64,000 nucleotides of DNA from Obrimoposthia wandeli (lineage: Eukaryota): the NCBI GenBank assembly GCA_977020255.1, contig CDROCS010001382.1, forward strand, positions 372,001-436,000, given 5' to 3'. This document shows positions 34,950 to 62,708 of this stretch, piece by piece. The notes beneath the pieces are model-generated. The model was not told where the DNA came from. It did not search any database and saw nothing but the letters and a program-made list of their open reading frames with translations. Both the position numbers and the translations under genes were made by a program. Position 1 is the first letter of the stretch, and every line of letters begins with the position of its first letter.

Positions 34950-35135
34950 TATATTGAATAAGTTTCTCAAATTAATTAATTTGAATAAAGCCGAGTTGTA
35001 AAAGTTCCTCGAAGAGGTAATTGATATAAGTTGTAAAACCGAATTAAAAAACCGAGTTGAAAGAGTTCCTCAAAGAAAAAAATTGAATAAGTTTGATAAA
35101 CCGAGTTGAATAAGTTCCACAAATAGATAAATTGA
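34950..35135. repeat. Degenerate short tandem repeat at the truncated end of Gypsy element A
   Basis: Repeated accgagttg.a.aagttcc.c.aa and aattgaataagttt units. Confidence 0.55.
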
Positions 35136-38100
35136 TATGGTGTTTCTCCTGTGGATGCATGTACTGATGTTCTGTAAGCAAATAAGCATGGTGCATTGTG
35201 TTAATCCCAATCTGTTTGATTGTTATTTGTATATGATGCCATCATATCTTCTAAGGTTCTGTTAAATCTTTCTACTAATCCATCAGTTTGAGGATGGTAT
35301 GGTGTTGTGTTGATCTTTTTTATTTGAAATATTTCAGCAATTGACGCTAGTGCGTTATTTATAAATTCTGGACCTTAGTCCGTCAATAATTTTTGGGGTG
35401 CACCGAAAGTAAATATTATTTTTTCAACTAAAACCTTCGCGATGGTTTCAGCCTTGTGATATACTGTTGGAAAAGCCTCTGGCCATAATCGGAAAATACT
35501 ATTATATATCGATTTCCTCGGGGTGTTTCAGGTAATGGCCCCATTACATCCATGGCAACAGTTTCCATGGGGGCTGATGGATACGGAATTGGTTTTAATG
35601 GTATTTTAGTAGTTCTTAATGTATTTTTCCGTCATAGACATATTTCACAAGTCTGGCACTAATTTTTTACATCTTCTTTCATGTCAATCCAATAGTATTT
35701 TAAGTTTAATCTTGAGTGTGTCTTTTTGGTTGAAAGATGTCCTCCTAAAACTCCGTTATGATATTGAAGGAGTAATTGGCCTTGTATTTCTTTAGGAATA
35801 ACTAGTGAATACAGATTTTATCGTTTAGATAATGTAAAATATTGTTACGGAATTTATAACGAGATTCATGAATTTTTAAATGTTTTCTTAATTTTTCATC
35901 TGTTGGAACTTGATTGATGGTGATGTACTTAATTATTTGTTGTATTTCCGTATCTTTGCTTTGAATATCGGTGATTACTTTTTCATCATATCGAGCCTTG
36001 ATTATTGTAAAAATATTTAATTCGGTGTCATTGGAATTTATTACATTTACTTCTTCTCTTATTCTAGATAGGCAATCTGCGTTGGCATTTGATTTACCTT
36101 TTCTATATTTAATTTCAATATCATATTTTTGTAAAATTAACGCCCATCTCATTAATCTAGATGTCGTATCTTTATGATTTAAAAGCCTTTTTTTACGTCT
36201 TTGATCTGTATAAACATAAACTTTTCGACTTAATAAGTAATGTTTAAAGTGTTCCATAGCAAAGCAAATAGCTAGGCATTCTCTTTCTATTGTTGAGTAA
36301 TTTATTTCATGTTTTTTAAGACTTCGGCTTGCGTAAGCTATTACATGATCTTTTTCAATTTTGTCTTGTTGTCCTAGTACTGCTCCTAACGCATAGCCAC
36401 TTGCGTCAGTCATTACTAAAAATGAATTGTTGAAATTAGGATATCTAAGTATAGGGTTTTCAATCAATTTTTGTTTTAAGTACTCGTATGACTCTTGTTG
36501 TTCCGTTTCCCATTCAAACTTTTCATCCTTTTTAATAAGTTTATTTAACGGTGTCGCTATTTGTGCGAAGTTTCTGATAAATCTGCGATAATATCCTGCA
36601 AGTCCTAAAAATTCTTGTATATTTTTTACTGTTTTTGGGATCGGAAAATTCTTTATTTTTTCTATATTACTTTCATCTGGTTGAATTCCTTTTGCAGACA
36701 CTGAGTGACCTAGATAATTCACTTTGTCTTTCATTCATTCACACTTTTTTGGTTTTAATTTTAAACCTGCTATTTTTAATCTAAGAAATACATTTTCTAA
36801 ATCTTTTAAGTGTTCTTCAAAATTTTTTGAAAAAATAAGAATATCGTCGATATAGACCATGACATGTGGCTCATGCATCTCTGAAATGTTGCTGGAGCAC
36901 CTGTTAATCCAAAAGGTAAAACATTAAATTCGTATAATCCTTCTCCTGTTGAGAATGCTGTTTTTCTTTGTCTGATTCGTCAATCTCTATTTGCCAGTAT
37001 CCCCTTTGTAAATCTAAGGTTGTAATTATTTTTGCATTTTTTAGTTTATCCAAGATTTCATCGATTCTTGGGAGCGGATATGTGTCTTTTTGTATAACCT
37101 CGTTTAATTTTCTGTAATCTACGCAAAATCTTAGTGAACCATCTTTCTTTTTTACTAAAACAACTGAAGATGTCCATGCTGAAAAACTTCTTCTTATGAT
37201 TTTATTCTCTAACATTCCTTCTACCTGTCTTTGAGCTTCTTCTCTGTAAGCGTATGGGATACGGTAAGGTCGTTGTTTAATTGCTGTATTAATAGTTAAA
37301 GGAAGATTATGTTTAATTAAATCTTTTCGTCCAAGGTCATATTCATTTTTTGCAAAAATTACGTCATATTTTTCTATTAATGATTTTAGTTTTGATTTCT
37401 CATAATCATTTAATTTAATATTTTCAAATTTTACAGTGGAATTGTCTTCTATTTTTTCATTATTAATTAATTCTATATTTTCTATAACACTTATTTTTCC
37501 AAGGCGCATTCCTTCTTTTAGATGAATCTCGTTTATGTCTGCATTTAGTAATCTGATTGGTATTGTATTATTTTTTATTTTACAAATTATATTTGGTAGA
37601 ACGTAATTTAGTGTTTCTTGTTGATATTTATAAGGTTCGAATAATATGTCTTTTTCTGTAATTATGTTAGTTTCTAGTTGTAATATTGTTTCTGTTCTAG
37701 GTTGAAGGATGATGTCTCCTTTTATTTCTAATTCGTATTCGCTTTTAGCGTTTGATCTGTAAATGTCTTTAATTTGATTTTTCTCGAAGTCAAAATGAAA
37801 TTTTTTTCGTATTTTCTTTATGTATCTATTCCAATTATCATCTGGCATGGACAATTTTTCATTATTCTAGTAGGTATTTTTATAAATTTATCTCCTATTT
37901 TAAAAATGCAATCTAATTTACCAATAATATTTACGGGTTGACCGTTTGCTGCTGTTATTTGACTATTATCTCTGAGAAGTAGTAATATTTGGTGTGATTT
38001 TAAAAAAGACTCGTCCAAAACTGTTACTCTTGATCCTGTGTCAATTAGAGCTTTTAATTTGTACTCATTTATTTCAACTTTTACATAAGGTCGTCTATCA

Positions 38101-39778
38101 TTATCCATTTGATTTATAGTATATATTGTTGGTTCAGTTGATTTTTGAACTATTATTTCTTCTTTATATCTTTCTAAATCGGGGTATTGTGCAGATTCTG
38201 TATTCTCTTTATTTTTATTGTCTACCATCTTCTGTAAATTTTTTTTCTCGCATTTCGTTCGATAATGCTTTCACTGTATTTTGATGATGGTTAAATATAA
38301 GAAATTTTGCTAAAAATAGAAAACATCCCAAAATTAGTTTCCATTTTAATCCACCAACTTTATAAATGTAATATGTAGATAAAATTTGACTCAAAAGGAT
38401 CTTAAAGCATATAAGTAGTGCATATATTCCTACAAGTCCAGAAAATGCTTGACCAAAAATTAAAAATTTTCCCATATTTTTGATATTGTATTTTGTGTAT
38501 CTTTTATAAAATGATTTGGAGAAAGTAATAAATCCTAATCAGGACGGCCAATTCCGCCTGGTACTGATCTTTCAATAATTTGTGTTAAAATTCGTGATCT
38601 AATTTGAGGAAATAAAATTTATTTTCTTAATTTATCTATGTCTTCTTGTATGTATATGCCTTTTGTATTTAGTTCATTGTCTGATTTTATTTCTATGTCG
38701 TTATTGAGGTTGGTTAATTGTAATTTTAATGGTTGAGCAACTATGTCTCTCCTTGAGAGTGATATCCAAATATCTTTTGAGATTTGATAATGAGGTGCCA
38801 TTATGTTTGAGCAATTCATTTCCTTTATACTGAATGTATTAAAAAGTATTATTCTACAAATAATGAATGATTTTTGTATGAAATTGGTAATTCTTTAGTG
38901 CATTTATTATGATTTCATATATTAACTATTACTTTTTTACATTGATAAGTATATAGCACTTATCCCATTACTCTTCCAAAATTACCATCAGCTAGCGGTA
39001 ATAATGGTGTTATTAATTCTGGATTTGTAGCAATAATTGCCAATTTTGTTTTCAAATTTTTTTGGTTTAATTTACAGTCATTCATTATTGTTTCTCTATA
39101 AATTGCTTCTATTGTCATTAATCCTTTGTGATAAAAATAATCTAATTTATTATTAAAATAATCGTAATTTTTTATGTTAAATTTTGTTGGTGTCGTTTTT
39201 GCATTATATATTTTTTCTTTACTTAAATATATTCCTTTATAATTAGTTGTATAAATAGAGTGTCCACATCGGGATTCCTCTTTCTTTTTAATAAATCGCA
39301 TTCCAGAACCTTGTTCTGTTGACATTAAAATAGTTGGGGTTGATGTTTTTTGAATTTTTCTTGTCCTATATTTTTTATGTATATCTTTTGGCACTCTTTG
39401 ATCAAGTTCCGAGTCATCTTTAAATCTTTGACCTTGAATTATTTGAAAATTTTCAGATTTAAGGAGTATTAATTTACATTGGTCTGTTTTTAACTTATAA
39501 TATAAAATTGAGGATCCTGTATTGCAATGATCTATATTTGCTTCGCAAAATGGCATAGTTACCATATTATTTGTAGATGGGTCAAATGTTGCCTTGAACG
39601 TTCTGAGTTCTACCTCAAAGTTTTTTATAACGACTAAGCCACTTTGTTTGACTCCCATCACAACGTATGTACCTGTTGTACATGCACCGTCAGATTTTAT
39701 TGTTCCTACTACTGTAATCATTTGTTGTATAATTTTATTTTTTACTGCTCGTACTTTAATTTCTCTATCTATTCTTAG
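35135..39778 (-). mobile_element. Gypsy-type retroelement A with a glycoprotein (env-like) gene directly upstream of PR-RT-RH-IN; no gag or LTR visible
   Basis: Env-like 39778-38215, PR 38228-37818 (KALIDTGS), RT 37300-36500 ([19 protein letters not shown]), RNase H (TDASGYALGAVL, ERECLAI), integrase 35800-35135 (HLSTKKT..RLKLKYYW, VAMDVMGP). Contains frameshifts. Confidence 0.92.
38215..39778 (-). pseudogene. Chuvirus-like/herpes gB-like (class III) envelope glycoprotein with C-terminal TM region, 5'-truncated
   Basis: GTIKSDGACTTG; RCGHSIYTTNYKGIYL; YFNNKLDYFY; DCKLN..NLKTKLAI..TNPE; GNFGRVMG; GIY..EDI..LR..ILFP; TM FLIFGQAFSGLVGIY...YYIYKVGGLKWKLILG. Confidence 0.8.
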
Positions 39779-42240
39779 TGTCACGTTTCTGGAGTGGAAG
39801 ACGGCAATGTTTTGCAGCGACATCGTGAAGTTCTTCCCTTGCAGTATGGCTCACAAGCTCATCAGAACAGTTAAGCATTCTGAAAGCATGAACCACCGCT
39901 TGGACGGCGTAGTCGTCAAGGGCAGAAGTTAGGCCAAGGCCACATTGTTTGTTGGATGCATATAGATAGGAGTTACTGGTTGTTTTCGGCAGATGAACTA
40001 TACTTTTGATAACTCCTCTAATACGAATATCATAGCCACCTTGAGACAATTTTCGACTATCTTCAGAACGCTCGTAAGAGTGCAACAGTGCAAGTCGTAT
40101 CCATGCCAGTCTCAGAGTGAATGTAAGCCTAGAGATAATAAAAGTTTTTTAGGTGTCGATCATTTGCCAAGGCCGAAGTGTGCTTTTGGCAATCTTCTCC
40201 ATGTCGAAAACGGCCGTATCGAGAAGTTCTTTAGGATCTTGTCTGTGAGAATGACCAAATTCTACACCTAAGTAGCGATAAGGCGGGTCCAAAACTGTCG
40301 GCATCTCGCTTCCACTGATCATAATTCGGTACACCGGACTCACAAAACGCGGCTGGGGCAGGATATTACGCCTGCTGCAGTAGAGAATACTGGGGTTCGA
40401 AGTTTTCTCAGGAGAGGCTGGATCAGCAGGGAGTCGCAAGTATCCGCACTTTCCAGGGTTAAATTTGAGATTTGACCAGGTTGCCATCTCTTCAGCTTTG
40501 TCAACCATAGCTTATAGGACATCATTGGTGCTGGCAAATAAGGCCAAATCATTGGCATAGGACAGTACATCGATCCTCTTACCATGTAATTGAATGTCTG
40601 TATCTGGAATTCTAGATATTTCAGAAAGGACCGGGTAACCTGAAAAAAAAGTAACATTGAAAGTGGGCAACCCTGTCTAACTCCACGACTGATCGGGATT
40701 GCTCCAGTTGTAAGTAGTCCACAGAAGTATCTGGAATCACATTCAGAGTAGAGTGACTTGATCAGCTTACATGAGTTATCACTTATCCCCATTCGTCGAT
40801 ATGTCAAGGAAGCCAATGTGGACCTTCAAAATGAAGTTGTCTCGTTTCCGACTCTCGATGATGCTGTTCAGGATGAATGTATGCTCAGTGCACTCCTCGA
40901 AATTCCCAGCACGTTTCTGGAGAGGATGCAGCAGCTGGTTCTTGGTAATTCATTCTTGTATTTGCCAGGCAAGACATGACGTGAATACCCTGTAGCATGT
41001 ATTCAGCATGGCAATAGGACGCCATGAAGAAACCTGGTCGTACTTACCATATTTGTTTGGTTTGGGTATCATCAATGTCCTAAACTGCCGCCAGGTTGTT
41101 GGCATGATTATATCAGTCATAATCTTGTTGAATAAGCTGGTGAGTAGAGCACAGCTTCGGTCGCAGTATCGTATGTCTGAGTAGAGTATATTGTCCTCTC
41201 CGGGTGAGAAGTCAGATATACTCTTCAGAGTCATGCAACCTCGGTAGGAGTCATGTTTCCAAAGCAGAATTCCGGACCGGGCTTAATATTGGGACAGCAG
41301 TTCCAATCAGTGGCGGCCAGAGCTGGAGACTTCGATTCACAATATTGTGTAAGATTCTCCAGAAATGGATATGTTTCAGCAGATGTGGAATCCAGGATCT
41401 TGTCAATGACTGACTTCCGATTATGCCAGTACAACTGTGGAAGACTGTTAATGTCATCGTCATCTCTAGGGATAACATATGGTATAAAGAGAGACTTCTC
41501 CTTTCTGTGTCTGGGACGGTAGATGTGAGATAGAATCCCATTAGAGAGCTCCTCAATATCAGCATCGACACTGTTAGTCAGCAAGTCCTTTGCGATTTCG
41601 ATCCAGAATGCTTTACATAACAAAGGTTTCTGCTGTTCAACAACAATTTTCCTTTTAACAGGAGCAAGTTTTTTGAGATTCAACTCAATCAGCTTCTTCC
41701 TGATATTCCGGACGTCTATATTAAGCAGAGGTTACTTACTGGATAACCGTGATGCAATGCCACATATAACGGGACCACTGTCGCCATGGGTAGTGCGGCA
41801 CATCTGGAAGTCGTCACATATAGAAGAACTAAATGTAACATTGTTGGCCCGTGTAAAGATATCGATGTATTGAGTGAGTTTCTCTCCCAAACACTTAATA
41901 TCCAATTGCGGGGTCAGGCCGGTGTAGTTGAAGACGCAAGAGATCAATCTAATCCTGTTGTAAGTGAACAGGATCCAGCCTCTACCAGATATTTTGTGCG
42001 GGGCAATGACCAAATCGATGTCTTTGAACATTTTGAAAGTAATGTTCTCGTCAACGAATGATTCATCGCCCAGAAGTAAGCACCTGGTGGCGACAGGAGA
42101 GAGCACAAGTCCCCACTCGTTGTTGATTGTTCTGTTAAGCAGCACCTCCACATTTTTGGGCGAGAAGAAAACAGTACTCCTAATTTCCTCAATGCCGTCG
42201 GTGCTGCTCACTCAAGCGAAGACTGTCCAGAATCACAGCC
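39779..42240 (-). mobile_element. Non-LTR retrotransposon (R2/NeSL-like RT), decayed and 3'-truncated
   Basis: IPKPNK...SSWRPIAMLNTCYRVFT; GVRQGCPLSMLLF; SYANDL (YADD equivalent); NLKFNPGKC; PYRYLGV; LRPWQMID. No endonuclease domain is retained. Confidence 0.88.
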
Positions 42241-42339
42241 ATCAAAATTAATAGTTAAAGGTGTAAAATACTATTTTGTATATCAGGAAGTTGATAAAAT
42301 ACTAATAAAATGTTCAGTTCACTGAAGCTATCATGAATG

Positions 42340-43790
42340 TTACTGTGGCCATATAAGTTTCTTGTCGAAAATCACACCTACCACACCGTATAAACCACAC
42401 AAGGTTTTTCCAAGAGATTGAGAATACGCATTTCGAACAGAAAAATAGAAATAGATAAGAATTACACACCTGATGCAAAAATTGGTGTGAGACGATATGA
42501 AACAGTTACAAGAATAGGTCAACGATAGAATGATGGATCGTGCCGTGGAGGAACAAAAAAATGTGCGTGGTACCAAAGTAACATCCTTAATAATGGACAT
42601 GACTTACTAGATTGAATTAAAAACATGGACAGCCAGTTTTGATAAAACTACAAAAAGTATGATGAAGTTTCCGGAGAATAACAGTTACATCTTGTGATAC
42701 AGGCGAATCCACAATTGTATATCAAGTAGACCCAAAACAATTTTCGTTGATATTTTTGAAAGAAATCAAATTTAATAAAATAAAAGGTTTCCTGTATAAT
42801 AAAGGAGGAGAAGGATTCCATAACAAAACAGGACCAATTCCTACGACGCCAACACCTACGCTGTTAATGGCAACATCAACAGAAGAAGGATTGATATTTA
42901 TCAAAATAGGAAATAAAGCGCGATGCGGAATGACTGTTAGTACTACAAACTATCCTGGAATAGTTTTGTCAAAAGAATCAATAGCGATGACTGGAACCAA
43001 ACTAAAATCTAGTGATATGCAGCTACACATGTATTTTAATAATAAAATTGATTTCTATTATCATAAAGGATTGATTCAAATGGAACAGTTATATCAAATG
43101 ATGGTTGAGAGAGATTGCCAATTAAATAAGGAGATCATAAGAACTAAGTTGGCACTAGCTATTACAAATCCAGACACGGTAGCCCCATTATTGCCTCTAG
43201 ACGAAGGAGTATTTGCTAAAACTATGGGAGAAGTAATTTATACGTACAGGTCTAAGAAAAGTGCTGGTACAATTGAGAAAAACGACTTGATGTACAAGTG
43301 AATTACTTGTAACGTATAACTCAAAACCACTTTTTGTAGAACCAATAACAAGGATGATACTTCCAAAGGACACTCCAACTAAAGAGATAAGTTGCTCTAA
43401 TATAATGGCAGTTGAATACCAATTATCGAGAGACTTATGGATAACGTTGCCTGACCGTAAGTAAACAAACACTCCAACTAAGATTTTTAAAGTGCAGGTT
43501 TATATAATGAGGAAGATCTAAAAGTGGCCTGGAACGAAATAATGTTTCCAGTAAGAACATCCAGAGTACTTAAGGAAATGGTACATTGTACATTACCACC
43601 AGGAGCTACATATGCGAATTTTGATATGATATTGTCGGCAAGTCATTTCAAAGAAGCGGCACACCATACTCGTAGAAAATGTGAGGAAAATTCCTTGTAT
43701 TAGGACAATTATTTTCAGGTATCATATTTATTTATGTTATAATAAAATTTGTACATTAAATTATAACTCAAGTGTTGTCAGAAATTCAAA
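42340..43790 (+). pseudogene. Chuvirus-like/gB-like envelope glycoprotein of element B
   Basis: DGSCRGGT; RCGMTVSTTNYPGIVL; YFNNKIDFYY; DCQLNKEIIRTKLALAITNPD; FAKTMGEVIYTY; GLYNEEDL...IMFP; TM FLVLGQLFSGIIFIY. Clearly homologous to 38215-39778. Confidence 0.8.
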
Positions 43791-44570
43791 CAGGAAAAGC
43801 ACCTAATTTTGACAATAGTGACCAGATTCCTGAAGAAAAAAATAATCAAAATAAACTGTGTTGTTATTTAAATAGTCGAATTGAAGATATATTCGAAGTA
43901 ATGCGAGAAATAAACGAATGTGACAAACAATATCGAGAAGTAACTTTCGAAGATCCAAGACTTAAAAAATGGGCAAAAAAGGGATTTTTTGCAACGAAAA
44001 AGGATGGTAAATATGTAATTAAATGCCACGAGTGCAAGAAAGAACGAATTATTTACAGATATACTCTTGAGCTACCTAAGAAATGTTTAAATTGCGAATT
44101 TTGTAATTAAAAAAACAAAAAGAAGCAAAAAGAACGAATAACAGAATGTATAGTCGAATATCAAATCACACTTAAAGAGATTTTGGCTCAATGTCATTCA
44201 TGAGAAGATTATATCCAAAAGAAGTAGACAGAATCAGAGAATTGGTAGAATTAAAAATAAAAACAACGCTAAATGGATAGAGATAAATTTTAAAATTATT
44301 ACGAGATAAAATTGACAGTACAATTGAACCAAAGCAGAAAGAGTACATACATGAACTAGAATACATGCTAGAAGATCCAGAATGCGCAGTATACATGGTC
44401 AACAAAGTAGAAGTTGCCTTTTTACCGTGTGGACATGTGAGAACATGTCGGATATGTGCAAACGAAATGGTAACATGTCCGATTTGTAGAACAATAATAG
44501 ATCGACAATTGAGAAATATCAGATTTCACTATCCAAACAAAGAAATTAGACCGATAAAATGTAACAATTC
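43772..44570 (+). pseudogene. IAP-like (degenerate BIR, linker, C3HC4 RING) between env and protease
   Basis: KWAKKGFF...VIKCHEC (BIR-like); KEYIHELEYMLEDPECAV...VEVAFLPCGHVRTCRIC...CPICRTII..LRNIRFH. Confidence 0.78.
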
Positions 44571-44963
44571 GATAAATACTTTATACCACATGGGAAATAT
44601 ACATGGAGCACAGCGACCAGCAGCTATCATTAGGATGAACAATTTAAAAATAAAAGCCTTAATAGACACAGGCACAGTAGCATTGATAGTGAGTGAAGAT
44701 TATTTGACAGAGGAACAGAATCAACAATGTCAGAATCAGATAAATTCTTGGTATCGGTCAACGGAAACCCTGTAAACGTGACGGGAATATTACCATGTAC
44801 ATTTGTAATATGATGTAATACGACCACTATACCAGTTAGAATCATGAGAGAGTGTCATGAACTAACCATTTTAGGAATGGGTCAACTGTCACAACTCAAA
44901 GGAATAAGTATCAGAAGTGTAAAGTGTCGGTTCTAAAACAATAGCACACAAAGCCCCCCCCCC

Positions 44964-47700
44964 AATTAGTGCAATCTCTAAAGTTTAACATGTCATTATT
45001 AGTAAAAACCATAGGAACATTAATACTATTTACCCAAAAATCTGCCACTTCACCATTTATCAACTCAGTTAATTTATCTACAAAGTTTTTAGCACACTGC
45101 AGACCGTAATAACTGAAATATTGTATTGAATTATTAGTGTTGTTTTTCAAAATCATCCCTATAGATATTGGTTTATGAATGTGTTTGAAAGTATTATGTG
45201 GTTCGAGTATTGACTCAAAGTCGGCATATACAACAAATGGTGGCGCAATAGATTTAGACCAGTCGGAAAATTGACACTTGATCTCTTTAGGCATTGTAAA
45301 CAAGGTTGTTAAATCTGTATTAATATTACAATGTGCTCTGTGTTTGTCATATGAAATCGTGGTTCGAAATCCAAAAAGACATTTCTCACACCAAAAGAGA
45401 CGCACATTATATTTTTGAGTATTTAAAAGTCTATTCAGGTTTGTAATCCCTGTATAGTGATAATTACCGCTCTGTTCCAACAGCAACAAGTTTACTACTT
45501 TTTCGCACTGTTTAAGACTCGTTCTATAAATAACATTAACATCTGGGTTTTTAAACACTAGATGACTACTATGAGGCTCTACCTTTGTAGGTTTATAGGA
45601 GAATACTGTTATCGCTATATTATTGAGTTTTTTAAACGCCTTGATACCGTCTATCCTCATAGGACCAGGCTCACATATAAGTTCATTTAAATAATCATTA
45701 TAGTTTTCAACTCTTTGTCTGTTTCGATTGAAATCTTTATAGTGTAGGATACTGAGAACAGCGTATTTAAAACACTGATCATCAGTATTATTTACGTTCA
45801 CTATAGATAGTGTTTTAGCAAGCGCAACCGGGGTTTTTATAAATGATGATCCTGCTACGTTTGAAAGTGCGGTAAATTTAAAGGATACCAACAGAATTTT
45901 AAATGCTGACCATCCCGAACTCATATCCTTATAAATTTCAATTTTATTGTTGAGCTCAACTGTTCTTGTAGTGATAAAATCTTGTTCAAAAATATTTGCT
46001 TTACAGCTTACATGCTATGTTTTATGTTGACCCTCGTTATTGACAAATTCGGTTTCAACACCAAACTGTATTTTACAGGGACCAAACACATCTATACTGC
46101 TAGTAAGTTCAGTTAGCATAGTATCGTTAATGTATAGTTTAAGCATGTTTAATCCACTAACATCAAAAACAAGGTTTGATTGAATTGCACCTCCTATTTG
46201 ATTGTTAAAAGTTAATGTATTATCTGAATTAATTGTAACAATATTATCAAAGTCATCATCCGTAATAGTTAGGAGTGAGTCGAAAAAATCATTTTCTGTT
46301 ATAAACTCGTCCTGATCTATAAGTTCATCAATATTATTATTATTTAAGATTTCATTAGGGCTTAAAGGCTCAATAATTTTTACAACTTCAGGATAAGTAT
46401 CAATTTCTACAACACTATCCGGTTCCCACGAGTCTACCACATCAAACTCTTCAGTAAAATTATTAGTTTTTGCTATTTTATTGTTGTCTATTGTTGGTAC
46501 TCTCATTACTTTACGTTTGTATGCTGACTTTTTAGACTTAAAATACGTCAGATGATCCTTATGATCATTATAAAATGTTTGATAGTCAATACAATATAAC
46601 ACATCACAATGTGGACAAATAAAACCGCTTTTAAATTTATAATATTTAAGCATTTCACTATGACATTCTATTCCATGATTAACGTTTGTGCAATACTTGT
46701 ACAATGTACATAAGTTACTTCCTCCACGAAGTTTAGGGTATACATGGATAATAGCCCCCTCATGTAAAACATCACCGATAATAGCTTCCCTTTCAAAGGG
46801 CATGCCATTACGGTTAAAATAAATTTGATCAGTCTCAAAGACTTCATATAATTTATTTGCCAGATCTGTAATTTTCAGACCTGGACTAATATTAATGGGT
46901 TTGCAAGACCCTAATAAATTTGCAAATATTGTTATATCTGCTGGTAGTTTTCTCAATCTACGCAGCTTCTGACGAAATCTTTTACCTTTCCTACCTTCTG
47001 TTTTAAGTTTACTTAAATCAATATTTTGATTTTTTACTTTCTTTAATTGGTTAAAATATTTTTTAAACGGGATATTTTCAAAACCCGAGTATATCTCATT
47101 TACGTTGAAATTTTCTACTGAATTAACAGGTGACCCAACAGGTGTTCCTGGTTTAAAAAGTAAGGGGTAACCTCTTGATTTAATTAACTTATTCTGCGAC
47201 CCCATTCCAGGAGTTAGACTGCCCCGCGTTACTGGGCAGCTATCGCAGTCGGGAGAATAAGATTTTATATCCCTTATATCCCCAAAAAGTTTATATAAAT
47301 GAGTATCATATGGAGAATGAGAATGAGAATGAGAAGATGAAGAAGAAGAAGAAGGAAGTTGAGAGTGAGAAGATTTCTCAAGAGATAAAAAAACTTTTGA
47401 CATTTTCTTCTTTTCATCATCATCATCATATATTGTTGTTGGCATATTCTTCTTTTTCTTCTGCTTTCGGCTTCTTTTCTTAGTAGGAGCATGGTGCGTT
47501 GAAAGCCATGGTGCGATTGATATTGGCAGTGGTGTGACACTCTGTATTGCTAAAATAAATTAAAAATAATAATAATAATAATCAAAATTACCTTTCTTCA
47601 CAGGTGTCGCATCCAAGTCGACATCATCATCATCATCAGCCACTGCAGGCTTCATCGTCCATCTTTTCTTAGCATTATACGCGAAAATAATTTTTGACAT
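44964..47700 (-). pseudogene. PolB N-terminal part (spliced leader exons, ubiquitin-like domain, zinc motif, terminal-protein region, vOTU-like domain, exonuclease I), one in-frame stop, truncated by the TIR
   Basis: ORFs 47445-46015 and 45924-44911 are in the same frame, separated by one TAG. Motifs: SSGW, GSSFIKTP, NNTDDQCFKYAVLSILH, YHYTGI, VVYADFESIL. Leader exon 47700-47592 is flanked by 39-nt and 42-nt GT-AG introns. Confidence 0.9.
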
Positions 47701-48487: not shown

Positions 48488-48571
48488 CTGAACAGTACTT
48501 TGGATTAATAAAATCTTAAAACATAAATTAAAAACTCACTTCATACAATCACACGTCGGCCTTTAGTTATT

Positions 48572-48982: not shown

Positions 48983-49003
48983 CTATTTTTGAATACAGAT
49001 TGT

Positions 49004-51171: not shown

Positions 51172-51222
51172 TACAACAAGTGAATTTAAAATCGATGTTT
51201 GGTATGTTATTACCCATTTTGT

Positions 51223-51552: not shown

Positions 51553-51583
51553 GTTTAATGAATTAAACTATTTGCAATATTGT

Positions 51584-52548: not shown

Positions 52549-52575
52549 TAATAATAAATCAAAAGAAACGATTGT

Positions 52576-52842
52576 TTATATACGTTTTATTAATATATAC
52601 AACAACAGAGAATTAAAAATTGATGTAGAAAAGGTTATATACATCATGTTTGAACGATTAATTTGAACAAATTTTTCAAAATCCTTAATCCGTTTGATAT
52701 CTCTATAGACATGGGTGCAAACAATTTCCTTTATATTATTACGAGAAAGTCCATCAAAACTAGAAAAGTATTGAACTCCATTTATTGTTCCGTTTATAAT
52801 TTCCTCGACTGCATCATCAACTAATTTATCGTTTTCATCCAT
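52576..52842 (-). CDS. Hypothetical Polinton accessory protein
   Basis: 88-aa ORF co-oriented between IAP and ATPase; no motif recognised. Confidence 0.45.
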   Translation of the reverse strand: MDENDKLVDDAVEEIINGTINGVQYFSSFDGLSRNNIKEIVCTHVYRDIKRIKDFEKFVQINRSNMMYITFSTSIFNSLLLYILIKRI

Positions 52843-52860
52843 TTATATAAATCATAAATT

Positions 52861-53760
52861 TCAATTGTTTATACCATGAAATTTTACATTTCTTACTCTC
52901 CGTTCGATCAGACATCTGCATACTGGACATGAATGTAACATTCTAGAACATGATATACATGTATTTACATGTCCACAAGGGAGAAATACTACTTCAATAT
53001 GATTATTTAAACATACTACACATTCGGGTACCTTTAAAATGTATGAAAGTATATTTATATATTGTTTCTCAGGTTTCATTTCTAAATTAGATAAATCACA
53101 AAGCAATTCAAATAGTGAATTGTATTCACCATATCGCATCATTTTATATTTTAAAACAGATTTTATTCTATCTTTTGTGAAAAACTTTTTCAAATATCTG
53201 ATTTGGTTTGTATCCATCAACATATCGAATTTCTCGATAGTTAAAGGATATTCAATTATACAATCTGTTTCGATTTTCTCAATAACATTAGCCTCATTAT
53301 AGGGTTCTAAACTGTTTGAATAGCATATATCAGGTAATTTTATATCAATATCTGATACATGTACTTTTCCAATCAATGGTGATGTATCAAAATCGATTTT
53401 CTTGTTCATAGTTTCAATTATTGGTACATTTGAAACATTTAACTTTAAAAGAAATGGACATGTAGGAAAAAATTTCATATGTTGCTTCATTGGTTTAAGA
53501 TACCATTCCCATTCGGATAACGCACCTTGACAGTATATACATTTTACTTTATCGGTTGAATCATCATCATGTTTATAAAATCCGGCTTTAGCTAAATCAT
53601 TTACAGATTGTTTCCCTTTAAAATTTATAATTAATGATCTTAATCTTTCACTTTCATGTCTATATTTCCAGTGTAAAACTTTCATTCTAGAATAACCTAC
53701 TTTTCGTCTAACTAAAACATCATCAACAGTTGTATAATGAAGTATATAATCAACTAGCAT
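52861..53760 (-). CDS. Inhibitor of apoptosis (single BIR + RING), intact ORF
   Basis: LAKAGFY...VKCIYCQGALSEW...PMKQHMKFFPTCPF; CVVC...VVFLPCGHVNTCISC...CPVCR. Confidence 0.93.
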   Translation of the reverse strand: MLVDYILHYTTVDDVLVRRKVGYSRMKVLHWKYRHESERLRSLIINFKGKQSVNDLAKAGFYKHDDDSTDKVKCIYCQGALSEWEWYLKPMKQHMKFFPTCPFLLKLNVSNVPIIETMNKKIDFDTSPLIGKVHVSDIDIKLPDICYSNSLEPYNEANVIEKIETDCIIEYPLTIEKFDMLMDTNQIRYLKKFFTKDRIKSVLKYKMMRYGEYNSLFELLCDLSNLEMKPEKQYINILSYILKVPECVVCLNNHIEVVFLPCGHVNTCISCSRMLHSCPVCRCLIERRVRNVKFHGINN

Positions 53761-53801
53761 TTCAAATCATGTAAGAATAAAATTCAACTAAAATTTATTG
53801 T

Positions 53802-54293
53802 TTATATCAAAAGTAAAATATCAGTTATTATCAAAGTCACATCAAAGTGATAATCCAAATCCTTGAGACCGAGTATGACCACTTTCCCGCTTGCAAATAT
53901 GTTGACGCACAGAGGATTGTGTTTTGTAAACCTTAAAGCAGGAAACAACTCAGGTTCGAACATGCATGCAGCTCCACACTTTTGAGACAACTTGTATAGG
54001 TTCACCTTCTTACCTAAATCAACAGTAACCGTTACGGATTGAATACGATCAATCTTTATTCTAAATGGACACTTGAGCAAAGTTGTAGTAATAGGTTTCT
54101 TGCAACCCATTATCCTGCATGCTCCTAATAATAACTAACTAACTAACTAACATAAAAACATACCTGAACGGAAGATTATAAGGGTATAATCCTTACACCT
54201 GTGCACGTACTGACATGGTTTCCCGGTTTTGAAGGGTAAGTGACTGATGTCTCCTTTAACTTTACCTTTATAATTAATATTTGCAAGATTCAT
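53802..54293 (-). CDS. TBP-like protein, two exons (39-nt intron at 54163-54125)
   Basis: Splicing gives LIIFRSG|ACRIMGCK. The second repeat is IQSVTVTVDLG...MFEPELFPALRF...VNIFASGKVVILGLK. Confidence 0.82.
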
Positions 54294-54416
54294 GATTGAA
54301 TTGATGGAAATAACCCAATCTATATATAAAATTTTTAAGCTAAAGATTATCCAATCAGAATCGAGTATGATATATATATAAGCTACCACTTTTGGTATAG
54401 AATTCATTATTTTGAT

Positions 54417-55067
54417 ATGAACTCTAAACAAACTAAATCTCTTAAGTTCGAGAAGCCACCACCAACAAGGCTTACAGACACAGATGTGGATACCGATGAT
54501 GATGATGTAGTTTTTATATCAAAACCAAAGAAGCAAACTATGACAAGCAACAACCATAAACAAACCAAGACTATCAAGATTGAGAAGCAAGCAACAAATG
54601 AGGATCTCTTTATTGATGATATAGTCTCTACACCCAAACATAAGAAACCGTTCAACAATAAACCATCAGATGTAATATTTGAGTCTAATGATTTGAAGTA
54701 TACCAAGCCGGTTATGTTTTATAACTGGCAAATTAATTTTTTGAAGACTCCAATCATATATGGATTCATGTTTCCGGTGGCTCTGAATAAGTCAAAATAC
54801 GATTTCAAGATACATAGATTAAATCCGTCAGATATTGATGATCTTAACAAAACCTTTGAGTCGATGCATCTCAACATCATAGTTGGGAATCATATAATAA
54901 TTCGAGCTGATCCTAATCTTTTCAAGCGAGATCACGACTTTAATGTTGACAATATGGGAACTGGACTCAAGTGGATGATCGTCATTTCAATACAGGGATA
55001 CAAAATCAACTGTACAGGTCTTCATAAACCAATCTGGAAAATTACTGATGGACAAGTTCGCTTATAA
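54417..55067 (+). CDS. Hypothetical Polinton protein (216 aa), possibly OB-fold/SSB-like
   Basis: Intact ORF opposite to the core genes; acidic and basic N-terminus; C-terminal beta-strand pattern VISIQGY...PIWKI. Confidence 0.55.
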   Translation: MNSKQTKSLKFEKPPPTRLTDTDVDTDDDDVVFISKPKKQTMTSNNHKQTKTIKIEKQATNEDLFIDDIVSTPKHKKPFNNKPSDVIFESNDLKYTKPVMFYNWQINFLKTPIIYGFMFPVALNKSKYDFKIHRLNPSDIDDLNKTFESMHLNIIVGNHIIIRADPNLFKRDHDFNVDNMGTGLKWMIVISIQGYKINCTGLHKPIWKITDGQVRL

Positions 55068-55254
55068 TTGTACTAATATATATTTATCGATGTTACTTTG
55101 CTTTCTTCAATATAGACTCCTACTATAAACAATAACGTTTCTTAAGATAAAAACTGCGATAGCTGTCCGGTTATGCGGGGCAGTCTAACTCCTGGAATGA
55201 GGTCGCAGTACTAAGTAAATTAAATAGTTGCAAATAAAAATTTGGGACGGTCAA

Positions 55255-55425
55255 TTGTGTTTAATTTCAAAATTTTAATTTTTAATTTTCATATTTAATT
55301 TGAATTAAAATTTAAATTTTTTAATTTCCATATTTAATTTTTTAATTTTTAAATTTTTTTAAATTTTAAGTTTTAATTTTTAAAATTTTAATTTTTAAAT
55401 TTTAAAATTTTGAATTTTTTAAACC
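55255..55425. repeat. AT-rich low-complexity tandem repeat ((T)nAA units) near the Polinton end
   Basis: ttttaatttttaattttcatatttaattt... array. Confidence 0.7.
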
Positions 55426-55496
55426 ATATACAAATGTTACAAAATATTAACCTACATAATCGTAAGTGACGCATAAGACCAAACAAATTTCGAGAC

Positions 55497-55666
55497 GTAA
55501 AGTGTCGGTTCTAAAACAATAGCACACAAAGCCCCCCCCCCCCGAACAAGGCACAAGGAAGAAAGCACATCTGTATGACTAAACAAATTTCAGATGTGCT
55601 TTGTTCCTTGTGCCTTGTTCGGGGGGGGGGGCTTTGTGTGCTATTGTTTTAGAACCGACACTTTAC
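55497..55666. repeat. 170-bp near-perfect palindrome at the right end of P2
   Basis: Arms of about 76 bp (TIR, poly-C/G, gaacaaggcacaaggaa, aaagcacatctg) around a 17-nt loop. Confidence 0.93.
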
Positions 55667-56499
55667 ACTTCTAGTATCGATTTACAAGATCCAAGATTGA
55701 AGGATAGCACGTCAAACAGACAGATAAATCAAATAGACGTGATCATAAAGAATCCAATAACAATCGGTAAAAGATCACAATTTGTCATCCAAGGTCACAC
55801 CTTGTCGGAAGATAAAGGACCAATCATATTCGAACCATCACGAAATTTTATAGAAAAATACGGATTGCCAATCGTAAGTACAGTATGTCTGATCGAGAAT
55901 CACAAAATACCAGTTAGACTAATGAACACAATTACATCCTGTTATATAGAGGAATGAGGTTGGGAAAGATAGAACAATTAGAGAATTCCACAGTATGTGC
56001 TATGAAATAGGATAAGAATGTAAATGATTCCGAAGAAATAATAATCAAATCAGAAAGACTGACAACAAAAGAAAAGAAACAACTACTTGATCTAATACAT
56101 AAATTTCCAAAAGTAATAGCTAAAAATCCGTATGACATAGGAGAAACCCCTGTCATAAAACACACAATATCACTGACAGAAAACAAAGTAGTCAGAAGAA
56201 GACCATATCGAGTACCATTACAGCTACAAGATAAATTAAAACTCAGATAGAATATATGTCTAAAACAGGAGTAATTAGACCTAGTTTTTTACCATTTTCT
56301 GCAGCAGTAGTGTTAGTAAAAACATAAAGATGGAAAAATGAGATTATGTATAGATTTCAGAGAATTGAACAAGATCACAAGAAAATACGTATACCCATTA
56401 CCCAGAAACGAAGAGATGCTTGATAAATTAGGTAATTCAGACTATTTTACGACATTGGATTTGCAAAGTGGCTACTGGCAAATTGAAATAAAGGAAGAA

Positions 56500-57312
56500 A
56501 TTTTTTTGTCAGAAATTAGAATTGTGTTTATTCTACTTTATGTTGGTGGTTTATGAGTTCCTTTTAAAATTTGTGTCTTAATTCAAACCCTTCATTATTT
56601 TTGAACAATACCACCACTATGTTTTGGGTTTTTGAGTTTTTTCTGGGTTCTAGGTTTTTTTAGGGCTATATTTAAATTTTTCTTATTTTTTCTGGGAGTC
56701 TTTGTTTTCTATTAAATTTTTTAGTGGTTTGGGGGAGTCAAAATATTTGGTATTTCTAGGTATTTCTATATTTTTTATTTTATTTATTATAAAAATTTTA
56801 GTATCTAGCACTAAAGTTTTAAACATTTTATTAAAAACTTAAAGATGAAAGCTTTTTTGTTAAATTAAAGTTGTTGGGGTTTTAGACTTTCTTTATTTTA
56901 TAAACTTTTTATTTTATTTTTTTGTCTATTATTTTAGGGTATTTTGGGTTTTTTTCAGGTTTTTTGAGTTTTCTCCTGTATTTATATTATTTTTTTAAGG
57001 TTTGGTTGTTTTTGTATTCTTTTTAGGATTTATTTTCTTCAGATTTTGTTTTTAATTGTTTCTAGTGTTTTTTCTTTGTTTATTACTATACATAAACCGG
57101 GACCGTAATTTCAGTATTGTTCTTAAACGTTTTGTAATTTCTATAGTTTTTTTGATTGTTTTTCCTAATTTTTTCAGTTTTATAATTGGTTGGAATGGCT
57201 TAGGTTTTAGTAGATTTATTTTGGTTATTTGGTATAGGAGTAACAGGTACTTTTTTCTGGTATGAAGACTTTTTTAGTCAATCGTTTTAGTGATGTTTTG
57301 TTTTTACTTGAA
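56500..57312 (+). other. NUMT: mitochondrial nad6 (3' part) followed by nad5 (5' part), inserted in the Gypsy RT
   Basis: Abruptly T-rich segment; ILLYVGGL(TGA=W)V (nad6); YM..D...SM..LI..PN...IGWNGLGFSSFILVIWY...GMKTFLVNRFSD (nad5, AGA=Ser). The RT is split between WQIEIKEE and ICEDGLYE. Confidence 0.88.
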
Positions 57313-60086
57313 AAAAATCTGTGAAGATGGATTGTATGAATGTGAAAAAATGACATTCGGACTGAAAGGAGCACCAGCAAAATTTCAGTGTTGCATGAAT
57401 TTTGTACTCGCATCGTGTGCAAACACGATGATTTATATTGATGACATCATAATATTTTCTAAGTCATTCGAAGAACATCGAAAAAATTTAGAAGTTGTAT
57501 TTAAAAGATTAGAAAATGCCAAATTAAAAGTAAAACCTACAAAATGCGAATGGGCTAAAAAGCGAGTAACATTTTTAGGACATATAATATCGACAGAAGG
57601 CATCCGACCTGATACAGCGAAGATCAAAAGAGTAAAATCGCACCAGCTCCAAAGACTGTTAAAGAAATACAGAGTTTTTTAGGTCTTGCGAATTATTATA
57701 GACGATTTGTTGAAATATTTTCCGATATAGCAACACCATTGAGGAATTAGACAAGGAAAGATAAAAATTCATATGGGGAAAAGAAACACAACAAGCGTTC
57801 GAAGATCTAAAGGAAAGACTGATAAAAGCACCTATATTAGCATTTCCGGATATAAATGACAATTCATACTAATGACAGATACAAGTAACTATGCTGTAGG
57901 AGCAGTATTAGGACAAGAAGACGAGGAAGGAAGAGAACACATCATCGCATATGCAAGCAGAATATTAAATAAAGCAGAGAGAGGATACTCTGTTATTGAA
58001 AAGGAATGTCTAGCCATAGTATATTCATGTAGACAATACAGACACTATCTGCTAGGACAAAACGTATTCCTGTATACAGACCACAAACCACTACAGTTCT
58101 TATATAAACATAGAGATGAAATGATCAGGTTAAACACATGGTTTCTAAAACTAGCAGATTTCGATCTAGAAATCTGATCTAGAACCGGAAAGTCGATTGG
58201 TAACGCAGATTGTTAGTCAAGATTGGCAAATGTAGACGAAAGAGGAAACATAATTCCAAAAGAGGGTCAAGATGAAGTCAACAACCGAGAAGGAGAAACA
58301 AATATAATAATGTTTTTTCTGAAAACCGGAAAATAGACAAAGAAATTATCAAGGAACAAAAAGAAGATGAACAGTTGAGTTTAATCAAAGAACTGTTAGT
58401 GAAAGAAGATCTAAATGATGAAATGACGAGAAAATACACGATAAAAGAAGAAATCTTGTATATTGTCAACAATGTTGGAAATATAGTAGTAGTAATTCCG
58501 AAGTCATTGAGAGCAGTAGTGATGATCTAGTACCACGACGGAACACTGGGAGGACATCTGTCAGGTCAAAAGACGATATCAAGAATCAAAGAGAAATATC
58601 ATTGGGATGGTATGGAAGATGATATAAAACAATGGTGTAAACAATGTAAAGTATGTTTAACCAGAAAGGAAACAGGAACTCGTACTAAAACTCCACTGAA
58701 ACCGATGCCAGTTCCTTTGGCACCAATGGAATTCACAGCGATGGACATATTTGGACCATTTAGAGAATCAAGTAAAGAAATTATGTATGTCATAGTATTT
58801 ACTGATTACATAACGAGATGGGTGGAAGCATATCATATGCAAAACCAGAAGGCTGAAACAATAGCACAAATCCTGGTAGAAGAGATAATATTTCGATACA
58901 GAGTGCCTAGAAAACTATTAACGGATGAAGAAAAGAATTTCACCGGATAAGTAATAAAAGCAGTATCGAATATATTCGGAATCATGAAATACCCTATGTA
59001 TGATGGTACAATCTTATTACTCCGATAAGCAAGATGATTGGGATACGCATTTACCTTCATGTTTATATGCTTACAAGAATTCAGTTCGAGAAGGCCACAC
59101 ATACTTTTATCTGATGTATCGCAGACTGAACAATATGCCAATAGATCTGGAGTGGACTCAACCAACATATCAGTACCTAGAAACTGAAAAATACATTGTC
59201 GTCATGAAAGAAAGACTAAAAGAGGCTTGGAATAAAGCAGGATTGAAATTGAAATTCAATCAAGAAAATTATAAGGAACAATTCGACAAGAAAGCAAAAC
59301 TACATGAATTTAGAGTCGGAGAGCAAGTGATGATATTCTATTCAGTCATCGAACCAGGTATATCGTTTAAACTTCACAAACCATACAAAGAACCATACAA
59401 AGTGATACAGACAACCTCAAAGAATTTGAAAGTAATCAATGAGGAGATCAGGAACAAAGACCAATGATAGTACATACGAACCGATGTAAACTGATACCAA
59501 ATAAAGATAATGCATCACGATATGAACTGAGATTGCAGAAATTGAAGCAGAACACCAATACAATTAAACTTACACAAATGGTAAGCGATCGAAACTACAT
59601 AAATGTGATGACCAACAGCAACAGTGCAAAACCAGTGAGAATTGGTATGCCCAGGATGAAGCACCAGGAGGAAAGAGAAGTCATCAGACACATCGCACCA
59701 CAAGAGATATTAGAATAAGACGAAGAGATTATTGTTGTTTTCGAAAGAAAACAACCAACTGATGTAGCTAAAAAAAGTCATTGGGAAAAATGCATTAACA
59801 AAAGAATTATTGTGCGAACTCAAAGTGTCAAATTTCGATGGAAATACATTAGTAGCAGAACTTCATCAAAATTCCAATGTGTTTACGACTGAGAAAGTGA
59901 TTATAGAAATCACAATAACACTAAAAATAGTTGCATGACCGAACTATGACAGTACTGAAGTAGGAATAGTCAGGAGGAAAAAGAACCGACTGGAGGTCAT
60001 ATACTCCATGGAACACTGAAAAGACTCAGACAAGAATATCATGATGTGATAATGGTATTACGTAATACACATGGAAAAAAGACATA

Positions 60087-60635
60087 ATGAGAGTTCATTT
60101 AATCGATGCAGATACAGAGAACATAATATGTCAAATGGTTCCCAAATATTTTGATAGAAAGACCATTGTATGTAATATACTGACTAGCACTCAACTAGAA
60201 ACAGATCAAACGGAAGTATCTGTGAGATTGAGCGTAATAGAAGGTTTCTATTCGCCAACCAAGCCGGAAGTAACGAATAATATAATAATTAAACCAATGG
60301 CAGAGTTACGCATTGACAGTGGATATAGAAAGTGGGAAGCTAACACTAAACCACAACGAATAAACATGATCAGACAACGAGTGAATGACTCAATGCCACC
60401 AAAATATCATGCCGAAATAGTATCATCCGCACCCAGTACAATTACATCGATAAACGACGAAATAATTATATTGTTGAGAAATCGACGGCCCTTGTCAACC
60501 GAAATACAAGTAAACTTGGTAAATTATGCGAAAACACCAATATCAAAATTAAATATCACCTATTTTGATGGACTTTCCATCATGGGTAAATTGAAAACGA
60601 TCGTTATCTGCTATGGAGAACAGTTCCAAATCTAG
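60087..60635 (+). CDS. Hypothetical accessory ORF 3' of the integrase in element B
   Basis: 182-aa open frame with the same A-rich codon style as the element; no motif recognised. Confidence 0.45.
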   Translation: MRVHLIDADTENIICQMVPKYFDRKTIVCNILTSTQLETDQTEVSVRLSVIEGFYSPTKPEVTNNIIIKPMAELRIDSGYRKWEANTKPQRINMIRQRVNDSMPPKYHAEIVSSAPSTITSINDEIIILLRNRRPLSTEIQVNLVNYAKTPISKLNITYFDGLSIMGKLKTIVICYGEQFQI

Positions 60636-61112
60636 ATACTTAAGGATAGCGTAATACTTTATCCAATTTCCATCGACTTTGGACCTTCCAATCAATTTAT
60701 TGTACCCTCGTCATTAATTTCAGTTGAAACAGACATACCAGAACAACCTTCGAGCAAGTCTACCCAAAGCAGCGAATCAGAAAACAGCGATTTGGAGTCA
60801 GAAGAATCTGAAGACGACAGAATAGAACGATTCGAAAGAACTATGGAAGTTGAATTTGGTAAAGAGAACAGGAAAAGACGAAACATAGATTTCGTTAAAG
60901 AAAATATACAAGGACAGCGGATCGAATCTGAAGAAGAAACATAGTCAGAAGAAGAAAAAATAAAGGAACAAGCACCTGAGATGAAGAAGAGTATTACTCC
61001 AGTAATACGAATGCTGAGAGGGAAGAAACGGGCGAAACTAGTCATCACAGATAAACAGATAGAGAAACGGTTAGAAAGACTAAACCTTGACGATTCGAAA
61101 ATGACGCCAGAG

Positions 61113-61530
61113 ATGAGTGAGATAATTCCAGATATGCTATATCTAGGGAACGTAGAAGACGCAACAGACGAAAACAAACTGTTAGAAAAAAGAAAAACAT
61201 ATGTTTTCAATGGGACAATGTATCACGAATCTCGGTACAAGACAATCAGAGCTATGACATAAAGAATAATAGACTCAATAGAAGCTGACTCTTTCGAGGG
61301 GTTCGAGAAACAAACGAGATAATCTACAACGAACTTCTAAACCAAGGAAAAATATTGGTATATTGCCAGAAAGAAATTTCAAAATCAGCTACCTCGGTAA
61401 TGGCATATATTATAAAGAGTATACAAATGCAGGTGCTGGAAGCATTGACATATCTACAAGAGAGACGAAGTATCGTGAACCTAAACATAATATTTTTGGG
61501 ACAATTGTCAAAATATCAAATCTTGTTACA
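61113..61530 (+). pseudogene. Dual-specificity phosphatase-like gene in the 3' region of element B
   Basis: MSEIIPDMLYLGNVEDATDENKL...GKILVYCQKEISKSATSVMAYII...EALTYLQERRSIVNLNIIFLGQL; frameshifted. Confidence 0.85.
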
Positions 61531-62708
61531 AGAACGAAGACGCATGGACGATATCCACGAAGATTTAAAAGAAAATAATTTCCTCCAATCATTATTGTTG
61601 ACTGGATTATTCATAACATGCGTCAAGAAAATCACCGAGATAATGCCGAAACTATTTCTATGTCACCCAGGAGATATAGATACTACTGGATTAAAGTTCC
61701 ACAGTATAAACCGAGTAATTACCATTGTTGAAATCGGAATCAAAATTATGAGTATATGTCAAAATACCGAAGATGATACAACACGATACATACATGCTTC
61801 GAGCCAAGAGATAACTGATGCACCAGAACATTTGACGAAGTTGACTCAAACCATTCAAGTCGAAGTCATAGAATGAAACGATGTCCTGATATATCAAAAG
61901 AAAGACACAATGTTAGCACCTACTACATGCGTAGCATTGTTGGTAGAATACCATTGTCACACACTAGAGGAAGCTATGGTAAACATCAAGCAGAATAGAC
62001 CAGACACGGAATTCAAACCGTTACTCGTTCGAGAAATATAGAAATATTCTGAAAAGAGGAAGAAACAACAAGAAGCGAATGCTAATGTAGCAATAGTATC
62101 GAGAACTCAGTATCAAAATAGTATCGAAATAGTACCTGGTTTAAAGAAATAAACGACAACATCATGCAGTATAATACATCGACACTGATGATTTTATTAG
62201 TGTTGGTAGGATTGATCGATCTTTGGCTAATTACGAAAATAATTCGACTCATAAAAAATGACACAGAAGGATTCCAGTACGTGAAAATGAAGAGACCAAC
62301 CGGTGAAGCCGAAAAAGAAACCGGGCCGGCCAAAGAAGAATGAACCAGTACCGCTTTCTCCATTAATACTTAGTCGGAGGGATTTCAATCCGGATGATCC
62401 CAATGATGACTTCGTAAAGATGTTTAAAAACATAATTTATAAAAATTAGTTTCATATGTTTTCTTGTTAATATTTATTTAAATACCATCTTTAAGTTTAT
62501 TAAAATATGAAGATGAAAAAAATATTTAATTATTCGACTGTGATTGGATTAATAAGGAATCATTTAAAATTTTTTAGGTTTAAATATAAATGCAATGATT
62601 AGTTATAGATTTATTAAACTTTCATTTGATACATAAAAATATATCATTTCATTGCTTGTGATTGGATTGAAAATGTCTTAAATTTATTAACCTCTTCATA
62701 ATTAAAAA

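Follow-up and report, generated by a model that had tools for sequence, protein, structure and literature searches.

An envelope gene between gag and pol in two Ty3/Gypsy families of the flatworm Obrimoposthia wandeli, and a probable membrane-crossing polyprotein

The DNA analysed here is a stretch of 64,000 nucleotides from Obrimoposthia wandeli (contig CDROCS010001382.1, positions 372,001 to 436,000, forward strand; hereafter the window, whose own numbering is used throughout), and it carries two retroelement remnants, element A on the minus strand and element B on the plus strand, each cut short at its 5' end and each belonging to a different Ty3/Gypsy family of high copy number in this flatworm genome. 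In full-length copies found elsewhere in the genome, an envelope gene (env) with the fold of a viral fusogen lies between gag and pol. We consider it quite probable that the window elements are truncated copies of families that encode gag, env and pol in one frame, as seen in A and pieced together for B, that both are likely relatives of the planarian Burro elements, and that their product is a polyprotein that crosses a membrane and is processed.

Element A is a 4.64-kb internal fragment (35139-39779, minus strand) equivalent to codons ~625-2192 of the family open reading frame (ORF), and it aligns to full copies as one collinear blastn hit at 92-93%. Both long terminal repeats (LTRs), gag and the 3' part are missing, and the fragment starts about 100 residues into env. 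The ectodomain of this class III fusogen, without its N-terminal ~100 residues, occupies 38480-39778; it was recognized by tblastn, by the fold of a full copy, and by the Pfam family Monjiviricetes_fusion (PF24664), which matches three ORFs of A at 38218-39850. There follow a membrane anchor with two hydrophobic stretches (38251-38499; PF24664 positions 533-614 and hydropathy), an aspartic protease (PR; 37824-38087; PF09668/PF13975, with an aspartyl protease match within 37821-38270), a spacer (37400-37800), a frameshifted reverse transcriptase (RT) and RNase H (RH) at 36123-37160 (PF00078 and PF17917; RVT_1 within 36907-37866, RNase H within 35805-36734), and a 3'-truncated integrase (IN; 35139-35817; tblastn, with homology reaching 35139), all on the minus strand. 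The Pfam order of fusogen, protease, RT and RNase H bears out an earlier reading made from the letters of the window (the sequence-only reading), in which no gag separated the transmembrane (TM) part of env from PR. That reading also had the TM segment run straight into PR at 38228; the adjacency stands, while the PR domain begins near 38090 and 38228 is the first methionine of an ORF. The spacer, described there as dUTPase-like, is so by its position and is conserved in A, B and public polyproteins, with no Pfam hit to name it. Nine stops and eight frameshifts damage the coding sequence of window A, and frameshifts at codons 1064 and 1140 put TM and PR out of frame with each other, the single frame being found only in other copies.

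A family-B-like 5' LTR end with a decayed primer-binding site (PBS) and 5' leader lies at 34833-35124 (plus strand; 71-75% to B copies C693 and C3212 by blastn) and is probably the 5' part of element B, now cut off from the rest; no partner LTR was found for it in the window plus 10 kb on either side. The remainder of B, also on the plus strand, opens with a 5'-truncated env (42215-43779; PF24664 at 42666-43298; placed by the domain map and by a blastn gap relative to five B copies), which breaks off at 43779, where 1.23 kb have been deleted and with them most of the TM region, a first protease (PR1) and a first BIR repeat (BIR1). What is left of the inhibitor-of-apoptosis (IAP) module is a second BIR-like repeat and a RING (43780-44510; zf-C3HC4_3, with the RING placed by Pfam within 44287-44772, and BIR assigned as PF00653 in an unbroken copy, E 6.4e-12, and by the map). 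A second protease (PR2; 44611-44912, by comparison with full B copies and the domain map) has its C-terminus interrupted by a Maverick/Polinton insertion, beyond which come the spacer, RT, RNase H and integrase (55673-59490; RT 57278-57679, RH 57860-58174 and IN 58531-58947 by Pfam), with RT split by an unrelated stretch of ~0.8 kb at 56499-57318. A post-integrase accessory region with a dual-specificity phosphatase (59491-62300; DSPc PF00782) is collinear with full B copies, and the window copy is truncated near 62300. The layout env, TM, IAP, PR that had been read for B is a product of the deletion, which is absent from all other B copies examined. The proposal that A and B are homologous yet diverged in env and pol was upheld, the Env ectodomains being 40% identical with 14 of 14 A cysteines aligned. 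Both window copies are dead. Because a B-like LTR end and leader persist at 34833-35124, the gag of B was likely lost by local rearrangement, and an inverted A piece and a non-LTR piece now stand in its place.

Family A is represented by env at no fewer than 132 scored places in the 1.35-Gb genome, with 95-100% identity. We took ten copies with long env-bearing frames and then ten with a shared env stop, and used 39 distinct places for the junctions. Full copies are 13-15.5 kb long, and one of them has a single frame of 2,779 codons. It encodes capsid, three CCHC knuckles and a basic stretch, then a signal-like hydrophobic stretch followed by the Env ectodomain and two hydrophobic stretches; PR, spacer, RT, RH and IN come next, and a second signal-like stretch, about 300 residues and a TM segment end the chain. 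The capsid matches Retrotrans_gag at E 0.0013, below the curated cutoff, and the three CCHC motifs were read in the sequence. Among the 37 copies covering each junction, 26 are without stop or frameshift from gag to env and 24 from env to PR; a control of 156 RT codons is open in 15 of 20, and the stretch from IN to the second signal in only 9 of 17. No programmed frameshift or stop is conserved among copies at the gag-env or env-pol junction, the recurrent stops being those at codon 473 (3/37) and codon 1200 (3/37) only. The env-PR junction is collinear in every A copy that covers it; env directly before pol is a family trait, and env-TM makes up one ORF with PR in the copies left unbroken. 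The sequence-only reading had allowed for a capsid gene upstream of env, downstream of it or supplied in trans; it is upstream and in the same frame, giving Gag-Env-Pol, and the Env-Pol order with gag in trans gives way to a gag that precedes env in each of the first 10 long copies. Neither a normal gag between env and PR nor junctions varying with target-site duplications (TSDs) or deletions occurred among the copies.

The ends are those of an LTR retrotransposon, and the LTR, PBS and gag that had been expected in genomic copies were all located. Twenty A copies were fetched at length; after omission of four without a visible LTR pair, 13 of the 16 tested had TG..CA LTRs and a 4-bp TSD. LTR pairs differ by 0-1.8% (12 copies), the PBS matches host tRNA-Trp(CCA) over ~11-13 nt, and the polypurine tract is weak. 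A separate ORF2 of ~380 amino acids before the 3' LTR (L035:2041-3180, minus strand) encodes a DEDD exonuclease (PF00929). In phmmer searches of PDB the RT of A best matches Ty3 RT (4ol8, E 1.7e-94), followed by 8r0s (E 1.3e-57), which we take to be a caulimovirus-type enzyme.

In family A, a stop at env codon 1015 was considered as the mark of a non-autonomous sub-lineage, and this was rejected: its 12 carriers among 39 copies are scattered on the copy tree, where 38 tips descend from their common ancestor. In all 12 carriers the stop lies inside an inverted repeat of 7 bp, compared with 1 of 40 singleton stops having an arm of at least 7, and the site is likely a mutation hotspot of the template-switch type; recombination between copies may also be a source of the shared stop. 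Between copies whose coding cores are more than 90% alike, the LTR interiors differ greatly, each with tandem repeats of its own, and the post-IN domains are only 63-77% identical, pointing to rapid change or to exchange at the 3' end. The post-IN domain gave no Pfam hit and no PDB sequence hit; in the Atlas search 18 of 30 hits lean towards FN3 (score 0.91, a weak recognition), and its model is poor (predicted local distance difference test, pLDDT, 39.7), with a beta-sandwich matching C2 domains (Z 8.3, root-mean-square deviation 3.4, 99 residues aligned) in a tie with many others. A usual PBS spans 18 bases. In L122, L124, L126 and L127 (near position 1500), up to ~40 bases of the tRNA-Trp 3' half plus CCA were seen in the DNA beside LTR-like ends, suggesting occasional read-through into the primer tRNA. 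The genome also holds tandem tRNA gene arrays of dozens of copies each, with a 207-bp unit for tRNA-Trp (L133, G000:C5734) and a ~285-bp unit for tRNA-Met (L134, G000:C2252).

Family B env occurs at 150 or more genomic places with 81-100% identity. Two copies measure 20.2 and ~25.9 kb with a 4-bp TSD; TG..CA LTRs plus TSD were recovered by script in one of four copies and by reading in a second, and the PBS matches host tRNA-Met(CAT) over ~11-13 nt, 7-8 bases off the LTR. Most copies examined have gag upstream of env (Retrotrans_gag E 3.3e-05, zf-CCHC present). The order env-TM-PR1-BIR-BIR-RING-PR2 was found in 7 of 10 copies, the other three being truncated or deleted, and the PR1 catalytic motif is kept in 9 of 9. 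The post-IN part has the phosphatase and further hydrophobic segments. Since no junction between capsid and RT is closed in every copy, though the open ones are found in different copies, we infer a single ORF for B as well. A stretch before env with a weak UBX match (E 0.032) is homologous to part of a public protein (P0004) that has a weak ubiquitin hit. A Bcl-2-like domain suggested by eye came up in none of the Pfam, PDB and Atlas searches. The protease tree is mostly without resolution, and PR1 of B forms a long branch.

The same order occurs in public sequences. Among 156 public proteins, 19 have at least 800 residues, and 15 of these have env then protease, eight of them with a capsid before env as well; RT or IN precedes env in none. 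As in family B, proteases are repeated in many of these relatives, ten of the 15 having two to four protease hits, and every one of the 31 full-length protease domains listed keeps the D-T/S-G motif. Before env, A, B and all 15 public polyproteins examined have a hydrophobic stretch.

The Env ectodomain of a full A copy was modelled with a pLDDT of 91.7 from a 107-row alignment. Chuvirus glycoproteins are its best match (E 4e-38, template-modelling score up to 0.77), and among solved structures it matches herpes gB (E 9e-13, score ~0.45); a search of PDB by sequence with Env gave no hits. As modelled, Env is a gB-like class III fusogen. To quantify the selective pressures that acted on it, the ratio of nonsynonymous to synonymous polymorphism (pN/pS) was calculated in A from variants shared by at least two copies, giving 0.07 for env, 0.04 for RT-RH and 0.05 for IN, as against 0.34 for the gag-env linker and 0.25 for the post-IN region. 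The env of A is under purifying selection nearly as strong as that on RT. In B, where counts are small, the values are 0.17 for env, 0.28 for PR1 (9 nonsynonymous, 10 synonymous), 0.89 for the adjoining spacer and 0.06 for RT.

A membrane-anchored polyprotein, as the sequence-only reading had supposed, is the likely product, and its synthesis can be pictured as follows. Gag would be made first, in the cytosol. The hydrophobic stretch past the zinc knuckles would then act as an internal signal that takes Env into the lumen of the endoplasmic reticulum (ER), and signal peptidase would free the Env N-terminus. The Env anchor would stop transfer, leaving PR-RT-RH-IN in the cytosol and tethered to the Env tail, from which PR would cut the Pol parts. 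The second signal-like stretch, after IN, may direct another membrane protein into the lumen. The outcome would be a 1:1:1 synthesis of Gag, Env and Pol at a single membrane, from which capsids would likely bud, giving enveloped particles that pass from cell to cell within the animal.

Several observations weigh against this proposal. The furin motif R-x-K/R-R is absent from the A ORF. If both hydrophobic stretches of the Env anchor crossed the membrane, PR would be luminal, and the topology given above presupposes a single crossing. Likeness to the window env was the basis on which copies were chosen, and this favours intact env cores in the sample; none of ten B copies is open from gag to IN. 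The dUTPase-like and Bcl-2-like domains of Burro were not recovered here by Pfam, PDB and Atlas searches, and kinship with Burro rests on layout and on a match made by eye.

A more specific picture is suggested by the flavivirus polyprotein, C-prM-E-NS, in which capsid, internal signal, envelope and anchor are followed by a cytosolic protease and polymerase in one chain. The resemblance to the A and B plan is one of functional analogy only and implies no homology, since flaviviruses have a class II fusogen, RNA replication and a serine protease. We tentatively raise the possibility that the families are enveloped retroviruses passing from cell to cell on such a plan, that the repeated retropepsins share the work or pair within one chain, that the post-IN membrane protein serves as the attachment partner of the fusogen, and that Pol might be freed from the Env tail without awaiting particle assembly.

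The layout could also be as described with an Env that no longer fuses and is kept to anchor assembly at the ER, or to provide a scaffold for it, inside a cell that the elements never leave. The missing furin motif would fit this, as would the equal amounts of Gag, Env and Pol expected from a single ORF; in retroviruses these amounts are unequal. We nevertheless regard a loss of fusion as unlikely. An anchor would need a signal and a TM segment only. The model shows a class III fusogen with no part missing; selection has removed missense changes along all 530 residues of the ectodomain (22 nonsynonymous versus 79 synonymous shared variants), and all 14 cysteines of A are retained in B at 40% identity. 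Less probable still is that the long ORF is real in the DNA and that Env is made apart from it, by splicing or internal initiation, with no membrane-spanning polyprotein. Errantiviruses do express Env from spliced RNA. Conservation of the frame would be needless if env were spliced out, yet both junctions are open about as often as the interior of RT, and public relatives of the same order carry an internal signal-like stretch in frame behind gag. Four runs, in which each of the 30 bins of the A ORF is covered, are contigs of one sample and are uninformative on transcripts or splicing. That these are Env-Pol elements with no gag of their own, served by a capsid in trans, or a chance junction of unrelated env and pol sequences, would suit the two window copies, both of which are without gag and begin inside env beside a non-LTR fragment, and is refuted by the gag-env-PR chains of genomic copies (gag upstream in the first ten long A copies and in most B copies, with a collinear env-PR junction in A) and of the eight public proteins with capsid, env and PR in one chain.

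Other elements have broken up the locus. The non-LTR retrotransposon fragment lies between the two truncated env genes (39780-42214, minus strand; weak RVT_1, non-LTR RT motifs in the translation, junctions set by comparison with full copies). Its ORF at 41735-42211 looks by eye like an Ulp1-type cysteine protease, with no Pfam hit; such a protease is a trait of NeSL-type elements. The insertion in PR2 of B is a 10.8-kb Maverick/Polinton (44913-55672, minus strand) with perfect 51-bp terminal inverted repeats and a 6-bp TSD, in which Pfam recognized rve plus chromo, an A32 ATPase, a weak adenain hit, BIR-RING and TBP. The TATA-binding-protein-like ORF is at 53805-54134 (PF00352, E 2.9e-13) and the Maverick's own BIR-RING IAP gene at 52864-53766. 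On the left, the terminal repeat is followed directly by an ORF that looks by eye like a polymerase, so that part of the interior may have been deleted; on the right, the terminal repeat occurs once more in inverted orientation (55497-55541). Older pieces of a related Maverick in the opposite orientation are present at 8058-8245 (versus 53378-53565) and 11152-11357 (versus 51944-52149), at 73-80%, with more near 20000-21250. Elsewhere in the window are Bel/Pao remains (135-2230, plus strand), distant Gypsy pol remains (3700-5540, minus strand), a foldback element with long inverted arms of 15-bp repeats (15484-16350), and a cohesin SA/STAG gene in several long ORFs (25366-30482, minus strand), whose 14 best named hits are flatworms, supporting the phylum of the host.

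With respect to known systems, both families have the traits of Ty3/Gypsy elements (Metaviridae), namely the order PR-RT-RH-IN, an RT nearest to Ty3 among solved structures, LTRs with TSD, a PBS and a gag with CCHC motifs, and those of GAG-ENV-POL elements, with env between gag and pol and a gB-like class III fold. Troyka elements, considered as a possible home, have CG..CG termini and a 3-bp TSD in the definition given in PMC12440569, and were rejected on the TG..CA termini and 4-bp TSD found here. The gene order is already in print and the finding opens no new class: the section on Burro in PMC6431247 (Arkhipova & Yushenova 2019) describes planarian Gypsy elements with env in frame between gag and pol, and PMC13524379 (Chary & Hayashi 2026) describes GAG-ENV-POL elements with a gB-type Env in nematodes, bryozoans and flatworms, so that the novelty implied by the sequence-only reading is not sustained.

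Families A and B are likely relatives of Burro; they are shorter than Burro proper, and for that reason we call them Burro-like. Grohme 2018 and Jurka 2007 are said to have described Burro and GYPSM1 as giant Gypsy elements of planarians. Both of our families share with these Retrotrans_gag with CCHC motifs, an in-frame env with mononegavirus fusion hits, a PR-RT spacer, a flatworm host and high copy number, and family B alone shares a BIR accessory domain and perhaps a ubiquitin-like one, the UBX match being weak. Family A is compact and has neither BIR nor ubiquitin-like domains; B, at 20-26 kb, is shorter than Burro, which exceeds 30 kb with an ORF of ~4,900-5,100 amino acids, a length that A and B do not reach. 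No MATH or ankyrin hits were obtained here, nor was a Bcl-2-like domain recovered. The two proteases around the IAP module and the post-IN phosphatase of B, and the DEDD ORF2 of A, go unmentioned in the Burro section of PMC6431247.

The flatworm elements Smed_errantivirus_1-6 of PMC13524379 also have the order GAG-ENV-POL and a gB-type Env. In their six Env domain I-II rows we recognized by eye the same eight cysteines as in A, in order, and the motif run TP-x-LMST...GMRFIKK...CG...Y-TNY-G; their listed spans of 14.5-18 kb are similar to those of A. Their PBS is unlisted in that paper, compared with tRNA-Trp and tRNA-Met here. Its main text uses 'polyprotein', 'in-frame', 'fused' and 'Burro' zero times and 'protease' once, and therefore leaves the single frame and repeated proteases undiscussed; it reports GAG-ENV-POL elements as not monophyletic. 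The nematode non-canonical endogenous retroviruses that it cites (Sacco et al. 2022) are metaviruses of another phylum with an RNA-virus glycoprotein before pol, and the Anakin elements (Dezordi 2020, PMC7642597) carry the same glycoprotein family on a Bel/Pao backbone. The repeated proteases, the selection on env and the post-IN membrane protein were not found in a narrow literature search, and Sacco 2022, Grohme 2018 or Repbase may already describe them. In Anakin elements, env is reportedly a separate gene.

To these systems our results add a young, very abundant family, with LTR pairs 0-1.8% apart, in which the single Gag-Env-Pol frame is visible in natural copies. Should the repeated proteases and the post-IN membrane protein act in the manner proposed, retroviral assembly would have a route that uses neither frameshift nor splice, in animals whose stem cells rely on control by PIWI-interacting RNAs. 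The single frame and the selection on env, nearly as strong as that on RT, support the published hypothesis that Burro-like elements are proviruses, not transposons decorated with an env.

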